DNA of 64,000 nt. Source: Clostridia bacterium (GTDB lineage Bacteria > Bacillota > Clostridia > Oscillospirales > CAG-272). Each line of letters opens with the position of its first letter. The first letter of the stretch is position 1. Shown here in pieces: positions 5,576 through 56,573 of this stretch. A program made the translations under genes and the position numbers. The notes beneath the pieces are model-generated. The model was given only the letters and a program-made list of their open reading frames with translations. It was not told where the DNA came from and did no database searches. Where the stretch lies: contig JAFUNJ010000002.1 of assembly GCA_017482355.1 (NCBI GenBank), positions 11,092 to 75,091 on the forward strand, in the 5' to 3' direction.

Positions 5576-5734
5576 TGAATTGATGCTAACGCATCACGAA
5601 TTGGCTTCGCCATGATTTCTCGCTTCGCTCCATGAATTGAATTGCAACTGAATGCCCGTAGGGCAATTCATGCCGCAGGCAATTCACGAAAGCAGAGCTT
5701 TCAATTCATGCAACCGCGAGGTTGCAATTCATTG
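5576..5734. repeat. Mini-hairpin array with AATTCA(T/C) spacer word
   Basis: At least six short GC stems with 3-4 nt loops: 5581-5596, 5602-5612, 5653-5665, 5671-5681, 5688-5702 and 5710-5725. They are separated by aattcat/aattcac/gaattga words at 5665-5671, 5681-5687, 5703-5709 and 5726-5732. Confidence 0.7.
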
Positions 5735-54905: not shown

Positions 54906-54987
54906 TATTAAAAAGTTAGATCGAGCCCCATGCACTCCCGCCGTTTTCACACTCATCTTATGTCATACGAAAACTTCCAATCTGCTC

Positions 54988-55016
54988 TTGACAAATTTGG
55001 ATTCAGATGATATAAT
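54988..55016 (+). promoter_or_regulatory. Sigma-A type promoter upstream of tRNA-Leu
   Basis: TTGACA, 17-nt spacer, TATAAT. A second TATAAT lies at about 55030. Confidence 0.6.
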
Positions 55017-55188
55017 ACATAGCGTTGTATAATCTTATACGCGGGTATGACGGAACGAGCCGTGAAACGGCGAAGCGAGAACACGAAGTGCTCTTGTGTA
55101 GAACGCTTGCGTTCTACTCCAGACACGCGCGCGGCTGCCAAATATGGGAGCTTCGTGGAAACCCGTAATAAAAATCATAATTAAATAC
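55017..55188 (+). other. About 170-nt structured leader between the promoter and tRNA-Leu (possible ncRNA)
   Basis: Contains a 19-nt near-copy of the tRNA 5' end (atacgcgggtatgacggaa at 55038-55056, against 55186-55204) and several hairpins (ccgt-gaaa-acgg, gtagaac-gcttgc-gttctac). No ORF. Confidence 0.35.
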
Positions 55189-55275
55189 GCGGGTATGGCG
55201 GAATTGGCAGACGCGCTAGATTCAGGTTCTAGTGGTAGCAATACTGTACAGGTTCAAGTCCTGCTACCCGCACCA
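55189..55275 (+). tRNA. tRNA-Leu (anticodon CAG), class II with a long variable arm, CCA encoded
   Basis: GCGGGTA acceptor pairs with TACCCGC. Anticodon stem CTAGA/TCTAG with loop TTCAGGT. T arm CAGGTTCAAGTCCTG. 87 nt ending in CCA. Confidence 0.95.
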
Positions 55276-55277
55276 TG

Positions 55278-55307
55278 AAAAAGGACTTCCTTTTGGAAGT
55301 CCTTTTT
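55278..55307 (+). terminator. Rho-independent terminator after tRNA-Leu
   Basis: ggacttcc-tttt-ggaagtcc followed by T5. Confidence 0.8.
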
Positions 55308-55490
55308 CAATGATATCCGTTCCCTGCGGTCACGGATGATATACTCTAACGGGTATAATATCTGCTCCGCAGATGATATGCGCTTCGCGCATGAGGGGAA
55401 CGGATATTATATCATGCTTGCTTAGCAAGCATATCATGCGGCGAAGCCGTATATCATATCGCCACAGGCGATAACAACATGACATCTCCA
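55308..55490. repeat. Mini-hairpin array with ATATCAT spacer word
   Basis: Hairpins at 55315-55337, 55360-55374, 55378-55392, 55414-55432, 55439-55449 and 55458-55472 (loops tcc, ttc, tta, gaa, aca). They are separated by atatcat (55409, 55431, 55451) or gatgatat (55335, 55372). Confidence 0.7.
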
Positions 55491-55494
55491 CAAA

Positions 55495-55526
55495 AATCGC
55501 TCGTATGAAACCATACGAGCGATTTT
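55495..55526 (-). terminator. Rho-independent terminator of the sugar-ABC locus
   Basis: atcgctcgtatg-aaac-catacgagcgat flanked by A and T runs. Confidence 0.75.
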
Positions 55527-55535
55527 GTTTTGCAA

Positions 55536-56573
55536 TTAGCCGACGATACCGGAGCGTTCGATTCCCTGAACGAGGTATTTTTGGCAGAAGAGGTAGATTA
55601 CTACGAGCGGAAGCATTATGAGGATCGCCTCAGTACTGTATACTGCCGCTGTAAACAGTGCCTCACCGGGATAACCCTTGACCTTCAGAATTCCGGGGAT
55701 ACCCTGGATTTCATTTAGTAGGAAGATACCCTTATTGTCGATCAGACCGAACAAGTCGACATAGAAGTTATCCGTCCACTGCCATGCAAACGAGAACAGG
55801 AACACCGTTATAAGCATCGGGATCGAGATCGGGATAATGATCTTGAAGAAGGTCTTGAACGGACCGTAGCCGTCTATGTACGCCGATTCTTCAAGCTCGT
55901 CGGGCACGCCCGAGAAGAACTGTCTCAACATGAATATGAAGAGTCCGTTCTTGAACGCCAGACCGGTTATTGACAGAATAACCATCGGCAAATAGGTGCC
56001 CAGCATATCTATCTGCTCGATTCCGAACATCTTCAGAATTCCAAATTCACCGATACCGATATCGAAGTTCTGGAATCGCATGTAGAACGAATGGCGGAGC
56101 GTCTGGTGCGGAATTACCATCGAGAAGACGACAAGCGCGAAGAGCAGCTTTCTGCCCTTGAACTTATACTTCGCAAAGCCGTAGCCGATTATTGCGCACA
56201 CAAACGTTTGCAGGATCGCACATACGAACGAAAGCGATGCCGTACCGAGAAGTCCGTCAAGGTAGCCCTGATTTTCGATTACCGCCTTATAGGTATCAAG
56301 AGTAGGTCTACGAGGAATGAGCTTGACAGTTACGTCGATGAAGTCATCGCGACCCATGAAGGACGATGCGATCTTAGTATAGAACGGGAAGAGAATTACG
56401 TAAGAAATTCCGAGAAGAAGGACGAATCTGAACAACCACGTCAAGCCCTTCGCGATCGAGGTTCCCGTAAGGAAACGGAGGCGGAAGCGCTTGAACCAAT
56501 TGGTTCTTTCGAAATCAACCTTTATCTTATTCTTCGATTCTCTTTTGATCTTCGGAGAGTTTACTTTATTCAT
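55536..56573 (-). CDS. Carbohydrate ABC transporter permease (MalG-like) with N-terminal extension
   Basis: EAA loop EESAYIDGYGPFKTFFKIIIPIS and six TM segments. Confidence 0.85.
   Translation of the reverse strand: MNKVNSPKIKRESKNKIKVDFERTNWFKRFRLRFLTGTSIAKGLTWLFRFVLLLGISYVILFPFYTKIASSFMGRDDFIDVTVKLIPRRPTLDTYKAVIENQGYLDGLLGTASLSFVCAILQTFVCAIIGYGFAKYKFKGRKLLFALVVFSMVIPHQTLRHSFYMRFQNFDIGIGEFGILKMFGIEQIDMLGTYLPMVILSITGLAFKNGLFIFMLRQFFSGVPDELEESAYIDGYGPFKTFFKIIIPISIPMLITVFLFSFAWQWTDNFYVDLFGLIDNKGIFLLNEIQGIPGILKVKGYPGEALFTAAVYSTEAILIMLPLVVIYLFCQKYLVQGIERSGIVG

Follow-up and report, generated by a model that had tools for sequence, protein, structure and literature searches.

The window analyzed here is a stretch of 64,000 nucleotides (nt) from a Clostridia bacterium of the order Oscillospirales (source genome G000; a 1.69-Mb assembly, 77% complete), which we compared with 41 related genomes, and our subject is an array of short repeated words and mini-hairpins at 55310-55472, between a tRNA-Leu gene and a convergent ATP-binding cassette (ABC) permease gene. 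The tRNA-Leu(CAG) gene, with encoded CCA, occupies 55189-55275 on the plus strand (ARAGORN; 49.2 bits with the Rfam tRNA model) and is followed by a terminator-like hairpin with an A tract and a T tract, aaaaaggacttcc-tttt-ggaagtccttttt (55278-55307, plus strand, from sequence reading and folding), and by a 'ca' linker, right behind which the array begins at 55310. The first-pass annotation had singled out three ATATCAT units at 55409-55430, 55431-55450, and 55451-55472; these coordinates are exact, and the three units make up the right-hand half of a discrete ~165-bp element. On the plus strand, the left half (55310-55379) carries four words that can be read directly in the sequence, W1 (ATGATAT, 55310-55316), W2 (ATGATAT, 55336-55342), the degenerate W3 (ATAATAT, 55355-55361), and W4 (ATGATAT, 55373-55379), with the segment H1 (55317-55335) and the hairpins H2 (actc-taac-gggt, 55343-55354) and H3 (ctgc-tcc-gcag, 55362-55372) between them. 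A further hairpin, H4 (gcgc-ttc-gcgc, 55380-55390), seen in both sequence and fold, and a center, atgaGGGGAACGGATATT (55391-55408), placed by minimum free energy folds and by the RNAalifold consensus of 55 copies, lead over to the right half (55409-55472), in which the ATATCAT words W5 (55409-55415), W6 (55431-55437), and W7 (55451-55457) alternate with the hairpins H5 (gcttgc-tta-gcaagc, 55416-55430), H6 (gcggc-gaa-gccgt, 55438-55450), and H7 (atcgcc-aca-ggcgat, 55458-55472), all on the plus strand. The usual fourth right-hand word is degenerate in the window copy (aacaaca, 55473-55479). Outside the element, the right flank holds a bidirectional terminator hairpin (55493-55526, both strands) of the convergent ABC-permease open reading frame (ORF; 55536-56573, minus strand).

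Since the left-hand word ATGATAT is the reverse complement of the right-hand word ATATCAT, the element is a mirror of words. Its left half is closed by a 16-bp long-range helix, P1 (55310-55325 with 55395-55410), in which W1 and the following ccgttccct pair with the 3' part of the center and the first 2 nt of W5 and which, in the best fold, contains G.U pairs on the plus strand. The units spaced by (g)atgatat that the first-pass annotation had placed ahead of the three ATATCAT units are present, but since P1 closes the left half, its 'atccgt...acggat' unit probably does not form a free hairpin here. The plus strand folds at -123.7 kcal/mol compared with -63.6 ± 5.2 for shuffled sequences (z = -11.7), and the minus strand folds nearly as well. 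A sigma-70 and terminator scan found nothing within the element; on the minus strand, the center has a motif like an extended -10, ATGATATAAT. We discarded a short ORF running through the right half, as it meets a stop after 3 codons.

At Rfam gathering thresholds, the search returned only tRNA, and in E-value mode, Gut-1 (RF01706) appeared as the sole non-tRNA match with an E value below 0.1. The Gut-1 model aligns with 55308-55384 (plus strand, 32.8 bits, E = 7.8e-5) over all 77 model positions, including all three helices, and with the right half at 55426-55527 on the minus strand (29.7 bits), again over all 77 positions. The Gut-1 consensus, CAAUGAAAU-hairpin-GUGAAAU-hairpin-GUGAAAU-hairpin-GUGAAAU, has the same grammar as the window array, in that a CAAUGA-type start (CAAUGAxAU) is followed by three or four short hairpins split by a constant RUGAWAU heptamer, three of them in the modeled half. 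A canonical ATGAAAT array in the same genome scores 67.2 bits on the plus strand (C15:12305-12380) and 49.5 bits on the minus strand for its right half, and, because its arms score on opposite strands, a complete element consists of two convergent Gut-1-like arms. The ATGATAT arrays are in turn tied to accepted Gut-1 by a shared tRNA-Arg(ACG) locus and by chimeric arrays. When Gut-1 was described, it was said only to occur in human-gut metagenomes (Weinberg et al. 2010, Genome Biol 11:R31; PMC2864571), and the flanks in that published alignment hold a tRNA 3' end, a terminator, GUGAUAU words, and downstream AUAUCAC words, that is, the same tRNA, terminator, and mirror half as here; the habitat, gut Clostridia, is likewise the same. 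The window copy differs in its word (AUGAUAU), in its H1/P1 segment (CCGUUCC), and in scores below 50 bits, and the Rfam model, which is typed as Gene; sRNA, takes in only a single strand of one half, over 77 nt. The mirror doublet, helix P1, the position at tRNA flanks, the loop polarity, and the PF05635 linkage that we describe below are absent from the Gut-1 paper (PMC2864571). The window copy is thus a member of a below-threshold subfamily, and the family as a whole shows features beyond those published.

Structure conservation was counted over 122 ATGATAT copies, and RNAalifold was run on 55 distinct full copies. H2 to H7 are ~90% Watson-Crick paired, each over 37 to 74 distinct sequences with many compensatory variants, and the consensus recovers P1 together with H3 to H7. 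H4 covaries among copies (gcgc/gcgc, acgc/gcgt, atgcc/ggcat, acgcc/ggcgt), and the right-half hairpins are conserved with compensatory changes and with G.T pairs on the plus strand. The P1 segment varies by word subfamily while its complementarity is kept (CCGTTCC:GGAACGG, TCGCC:GGCGA, GTGTTCCG:CGGAACAC, GTCGCCC:GGGCGAC, GCAACC:GGTTGC), with the caveat that the center also duplicates the 3' arm of the local hairpin H1, which more distant copies still have intact but which has decayed in this genus, where P1 has been kept. Left and right words are complementary in every subfamily examined. There are four left words in 102 of the 122 copies and four right words in 68, and unit number varies, both in the range of right-hand words (1 to 7) and through unit losses among congeners at the tRNA-Arg locus. 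Right-hand words are spaced preferentially 20 to 22 bp apart (249 of 371 intervals), about two helical turns, and left-half spacings of 16, 18 to 20, and 25 to 26 bp show no phasing.

The hairpin loops have a polarity that is mirrored at the center. G..A loops (GNA or GNNA) account for 73 of 153 right-half loops on the plus strand and for none on the minus strand, and in the left half, for 54 of 73 on the minus strand and for none on the plus strand; they are closed by a C-G pair in about 87 to 89% of cases. Among hairpins with a single defect, G.T outnumbers A.C in the right half (43 versus 6), and the left half has 5 versus 13. From the mirrored G..A loop polarity and these G.T counts, we infer that each arm is used on the strand running 5' to 3' away from the center, contrary to the Rfam strand for the modeled arm. 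In DNA, mini-hairpins of the C(GNA)G type, GCGAAGC being one, have exceptional stability, and a GCGAAGC unit is present in the window array at 55441-55447. Either RNA or DNA would fit as the active form of the arrays.

A word scan of the assembly found six full arrays of four plus four words, two of the ATGATAT type (the window copy and C14:42132-42261), three of the ATGAATT type (window 5576-5734, C11:38322, and C14:3460), and one of the ATGAAAT type (C15:12307-12496). The first-pass annotation had recognized that the arrays at 5576-5734 and at the present locus share one grammar, and we agree: they represent two subfamilies, ATGAATT/AATTCAT and ATGATAT/ATATCAT, of one superfamily, whose stems are, as it had also stated, unrelated. 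The closest paralogue of the window copy is G000:C14:42125-42283 (86% identity), and the array at 5576-5734 likewise has two close paralogues, C11:38322 and C14:3460. That array is in canonical orientation on the minus strand, with W1 and its H1 arm (ATGAATTGCAACC) at the right end and a matching center segment, gaattgcaac, near 5645. In G003 and G023 (L178 and L193), a separate PF05635 group located behind rumA-like genes is linked to this subfamily. Further word families, ATGATG/CATCAT, a TTATTCA...TGAATAA heptad, TATAAT, and AGATAAT, lie behind the 27 tRNA and transfer-messenger RNA (tmRNA) genes of G000. The heptad variant, found behind four tRNA or tRNA-cluster ends (G000:C10:197652, C20:37110, C21:48279, and C21:49077), consists of about five hairpin-free TTATTCA-type words in tandem, a spacer like the 3' half of the terminator, and about five TGAATAA-type words. 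Separately, the same ~150-nt structured element, which ends in a sequence like the 3' end of tRNA-Ser, lies behind tRNA-Ser GGA, GCT, and CGA (G000:C1:23221, C7:229686, and C10:282895).

Beyond the source genome, BLAST found the element (window 55302-55473) at 74 to 91% identity in 16 of the 41 related genomes, other families of the order included, with up to 12 matches in one genome (G027). At least 120 stretches of GTDB species-representative genomes contain the exact center motif, GGAACGGATATTATATCAT; these come from metagenome-assembled genomes labeled Acutalibacteraceae, Faecousia, Ruminococcus, Oscillospiraceae, and Eubacteriales, with human, goat, sheep, buffalo, horse, and deer guts among their sources, and from one complete genome. 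Phage and plasmid collections gave no match to the element, and 2.9 million viral contigs gave a single one, an exact center motif, which argues that the element is not phage or plasmid borne. Upstream sequence was sufficient for 103 copies, of which 68 lie behind a same-strand tRNA, with 28 different anticodons, and in 65 of these 68, the tRNA ends 33 to 46 nt before W1; tRNA-Leu(CAG) is an upstream anchor of the type usual for Gut-1-family arrays. Among the copies without a tRNA, several are preceded by a 3' end like that of tmRNA or by a bare ...CCA fragment. Almost every copy has a terminator-type hairpin ahead of it, and one and the same hairpin sequence can be found after different tRNAs in different genomes. 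The element is therefore a discrete, inherited, multicopy module of gut Oscillospirales that normally lies behind a tRNA or tmRNA terminator hairpin. Among the ATGATAT copies, some are unusual: L050 has tandem arrays with common end words, L139 and L120 carry a palindromic insertion in H4 and H3, respectively, in L075 one terminator hairpin is flanked by two inverted left arms, and L028 has precisely lost its left half between two GGAACGG repeats. The word variants are not locus specific, which the first-pass annotation had proposed to check, as every word type is multicopy and found behind many different tRNAs.

Chance, which had been named as the refuting explanation, is excluded by the fold z-score, by the homologous copies in many genomes, and by simulated sequence. 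Ten first-order Markov genomes of the same size each held 0 to 5 runs of three or more identical 7-mers at 15- to 30-nt spacing, none of them with hairpin spacers, and the real genome held seven such runs with hairpin spacers, four of which are arrays of this family. The count for the real genome comes from a relaxed test; under a strict one, with perfect hairpins required in frame with the word, even that genome gave 0 arrays.

The orthologous tRNA-Arg(ACG) locus, with its conserved downstream terminator and gene, carries four array types, chimeras, and unit losses among seven congeneric species. G000 and G001 have ATGATAT arrays there, that of G000 (the C14 paralogue) being without one unit; G004 and G008 have canonical ATGAAAT arrays, with a terminator hairpin in G004 that is identical to that of G000; G010 has an ATGATG array; G014 and G011 have an ATGATG array together with a PF05635 gene; and G003 has an inverted ATATCAT...ATGATAT array. 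The chimeras share the last word and last hairpin between types, as CATCAT is the last word in G000 and G001 and ATATCAT is the last word of the ATGATG array of G010. At the window locus, the orthologues in G004 and G008 have the same tRNA-Leu and the same ABC-gene terminator with a different tRNA terminator, the array being absent and other sequence lying between. This replacement of types and these chimeras at tRNA-Arg, together with the other sequence at tRNA-Leu, indicate that array modules are exchanged at tRNA flanks. The ABC-gene terminator hairpin is kept beside the ABC gene, with the array absent, in G003, G004, G008, G015, and G001. A clean empty site was not found for the window locus, because G004 and G008 hold other sequence and synteny is broken in G003, G015, and G001, and neither a target-site duplication nor a terminal cleavage signature was seen at the element ends at the tRNA-Leu and tRNA-Arg loci. 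The first-pass annotation had suggested a generative process, templated or driven by a recombinase or transposase, rather than copying of one ancestral sequence. Its recombinational part holds to the extent that array types are swapped at one tRNA-Arg locus, but the units themselves are copied, not generated: the 86% paralogue, the relatives at 74 to 91% identity, and the compensatory substitutions show that the stems are inherited.

Some further observations concern the same tRNA flanks. In place of window positions 55276-55492, G004 (L029, C52) and G008 (L030, C47) have a different terminator, ~110 nt of other sequence, a duplicate of the tRNA-Leu 3' end (ggttcttgacccctgctacccgcacca), and a second terminator, and the first of these modules is also present behind tRNA-Leu(TAG) in G000 (C7:327210). 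Upstream of the tRNA-Leu gene (window 54963-55188), a perfect sigma-70 promoter (TTGACA, 17 nt, TATAAT; 54988-55016) lies ~170 nt 5' of the tRNA, and the leader between them opens with a near-duplicate of the tRNA 5' end (atacgcgggtatgacggaa versus atacgcgggtatggcggaa); this leader is 80 to 85% conserved in G004 and G008, has a partial match in G001, and gave no Rfam match. At tRNA-Thr (G000:C7:94701) and tRNA-Met (C20:2141), inserts of ~100 to 150 nt lie between direct duplications, of the terminator at C7 and of the tRNA 3' end and terminator at C20, a pattern suggestive of past site-specific integration at tRNA 3' ends.

A gene that recurs 3' of the arrays encodes a protein starting with MSENKLL that belongs to PF05635 (23S_rRNA_IVP; E = 5e-15), a family regarded as Avd-like (PMC10053308). 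The nearest solved structure to this MSENKLL-type protein is 2RLD (five chains; E = 2.9e-26). A PF05635 gene lies 3' of at least 19 of the 122 ATGATAT arrays, and PF05635 genes are present in 26 of the 41 relatives. For 49 confirmed PF05635 genes from the relatives, an inverted word array lies upstream in most of those with usable upstream sequence, and 28 of the 49 have a same-strand tRNA within 420 nt. The word is constant within a PF05635 protein group and different between groups, the words including AATGATG, GTGAAGT, TGAATAA, (A/G)TGAAAT, TGAATTG, GTTATGA, GTTATAT, CGATAT, AAGTAAG, and ATGATAT. In G000, all three PF05635 genes stand directly behind arrays that follow tRNA-Gly, tRNA-Arg, and tmRNA. 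The heptad copy at C21:49077, behind tRNA-Gly, precedes the PF05635 gene at C21:48835-48488, and the gene behind the tmRNA and an AGATAAT/ATTATCT array (G000:C5:143816-144153) is in two pieces in different frames and is probably a frameshifted pseudogene. Genes of this family of 23S-rRNA intervening sequence (IVS) proteins have related arrays directly upstream and resemble the IVS genes in their attachment to stable-RNA genes; the window copy has no PF05635 gene adjoining it. A diversity-generating retroelement (DGR), which combines Avd with a reverse transcriptase (RT) and a template and variable repeat (TR/VR), was rejected, as no RT is adjacent to any of the three PF05635 genes of G000. The only RT ORF in the assembly (C5:4738-5808, 356 amino acids, with the hit at C5:5035-5610) shows YCDD and VTG motifs by eye and looks retron-like, and, because this sole RT is distant and retron-like, the PF05635 genes here do not form a DGR. 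To our knowledge, no function is known for PF05635 members outside DGRs.

Our results lead us to favor, with moderate confidence, the reading that 55310-55472 is a solitary, "orphan" copy of a Gut-1-family mirror hairpin array of the ATGATAT/ATATCAT subfamily, in which the heptamers are predicted to be words recognized by a protein. The heptamers would be recognition sites for PF05635-type proteins, the hairpins may space the words and, through their structure, display them on single-stranded nucleic acid, each arm would be used on the strand reading 5' to 3' away from the center, and the window copy might either be served in trans or be a relic kept by the recombination dynamics of the family. 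A bolder form of this idea, which we regard as speculative and on balance improbable, is that the words are an address code for cognate Avd-like four-helix-bundle proteins, that array and gene together make up an undescribed cassette homing behind tRNA and tmRNA terminators and swapping modules there, and that the arms act as single-stranded DNA mini-hairpins pointing outward from the center. What suggests such a DNA device are the C-G-closed GNA and GNNA loops and the G.T tolerance, which point to the top strand right of the center and to the bottom strand left of it.

Several observations weigh against this interpretation. Both halves of the window copy miss the Gut-1 gathering score, and the ladder fold that would pair W4 with W5, W3 with W6, and W2 with W7 was dropped as the main RNA fold, as it is far less stable (-40.6 kcal/mol) than P1 with local hairpins (-78.0 kcal/mol). 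The strand bias of the left half is weak (13 versus 5). No cognate MSENKLL-type gene was found in the 77% complete G000 assembly (best tblastn match, 46%), nor was this type found in 40 relatives (best, 57% identity), although 15 of them carry array matches. G027, which is 98% complete, has about seven near-full-length arrays among its 12 query matches and no cognate gene, which indicates that arrays persist without the cognate protein. Moreover, the match between words and protein groups could be simple coinheritance.

Other interpretations have to be set beside the protein-recognition reading. The element might be one or more free-standing small RNAs (sRNAs), either the left-half plus-strand sRNA of Rfam or two divergent sRNAs that run from near the center to the flanking terminators. 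We consider this doubtful. In its favor, the hairpins are conserved by compensatory change, G.T pairs are favored on the plus strand of the right half and P1 holds plus-strand G.U pairs, orphan copies are flanked by terminator hairpins on both sides, and the minus strand of the center, TGATATAAT, is a perfect extended -10 located 6 to 7 nt before the P1 strand, at which ATGAAAT centers read TAAAAT. However, this -10-like motif is missing in the ATGATG, ATGAAG, and GTGAAGT subfamilies, and on the plus strand, the element starts right behind a terminator with no promoter detected in the sigma-70 scan. The loops also speak against it, as in the Rfam orientation they are UNC rather than G..A, and GNRA makes up only 26 of the 63 GNNA tetraloops, a proportion that selection for RNA GNRA loops would not give and that DNA-type G..A loops fit better.

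Less probable still, in our judgment, is a purely selfish, nonautonomous repeat resembling a miniature inverted-repeat transposable element (MITE), which would occupy a safe site behind stable-RNA terminators and spread by recombination or through a trans-acting enzyme without any host function. Such a repeat would account for the patchy distribution in the genus (a match in 11 of 18 congeners), for the several matches per genome that are common and reach 12 in G027, for tandem and nested copies such as L050, L139, and L120, for the replacement of array types and the chimeric arrays at one locus, and for the absence of the array from the orthologous tRNA-Leu locus of G004 and G008. Yet neither a target-site duplication or cleavage signature nor a transposase-like partner was found, and the collections of phages, plasmids, and viral contigs yielded only the one match mentioned above. 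Furthermore, words identical within an array and hairpin pairing and G..A polarity kept across families of the order point to continuing selection on the sequence itself. In the comparison with MITEs and terminal inverted repeats, the words are inverted between the arms, the ends show no duplication, and the tRNA-Leu locus of G004 and G008 carries other sequence.

The position of the arrays, always between a tRNA terminator and a promoter or convergent terminator, would also suit an insulator, at the level of DNA or of transcription, that separates a tRNA gene under strong transcription from its neighbor, whether as a pause array, as a backup terminator, or through AT-rich curved DNA phased upstream of the next promoter. 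In many copies, the last right-hand word runs into the -35 box of a promoter (ATATCA-TTGACA or TTGAAA, 17 nt, TATAAT), and the 20- to 22-bp spacing of the right-hand words would fit phasing, but we find this explanation hard to credit, since the mini-hairpins have no U tracts, the left-half spacings are unphased, the strand-specific G.T tolerance points to a single-stranded form, and an insulator needs neither subfamily-specific words nor complementarity between left and right. That the units arose de novo by a templated or recombinase process, or by chance, and are not copies of an ancestor would fit the unrelated stems of the subfamilies and the variable unit number but is very improbable, given that paralogues and orthologues share stems at 74 to 91% identity and that the fold z-score and the Markov genomes exclude chance.

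The arrays have partial likenesses to known systems. Like the repetitive extragenic palindromic (REP) sequences, the bacterial interspersed mosaic elements (BIMEs), and REP doublets (REPINs) with their REP-associated tyrosine transposases (RAYTs), they are hairpin repeats present in many copies in the intergenic DNA behind terminators, where each hairpin has a short, conserved tag beside it and pairs are inverted. REPs, however, conserve the hairpin sequence, whereas the arrays conserve only the 7-nt linker and vary in their stems, and the arrays are ordered as four direct and then four inverted words in contrast to the alternating order of REPs and BIMEs; we rejected this assignment because the unit stems are unrelated and no RAYT or HUH gene is linked, with no search aimed at RAYT having been made. 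With iterons and their Rep proteins and with the ends of Tn7 and Mu, the arrays share identical short words that are direct within an arm and inverted between arms, a word type that matches the adjacent protein type, and a last word that overlaps the promoter of the protein gene, but their words are only 7 nt long, their spacers are selected hairpins, and they have neither a replication or transposition gene nor a target duplication. A clustered regularly interspaced short palindromic repeat (CRISPR) array, with identical repeats of 23 to 47 bp and unique spacers about as long, was dismissed, as the constant part here is 7 nt and the variable parts are palindromes of 9 to 19 nt. An array of intrinsic terminators was likewise rejected, as the hairpins are followed by AUGAUAU or AUAUCAU and not by a U tract, and the terminator scan was empty inside the element.

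Our findings place Gut-1, an orphan motif since 2010, in named lineages, namely Oscillospirales (among them Acutalibacteraceae, Faecousia, and Ruminococcus) from the guts of humans and livestock, and give the element a fixed address behind tRNA and tmRNA terminators. The 77 nt catalogued so far correspond to a single arm of the mirror doublet, which a long-range helix closes. For annotation, these arrays explain a large share of the unusual intergenic sequence that follows tRNA genes in these genomes. If the DNA device suggested by the loops were true, "Gut-1" would be no sRNA, and Rfam would model the wrong strand. Gut-1 is now also connected to the equally unexplained PF05635/Avd-like family, so that two orphans become jointly testable.

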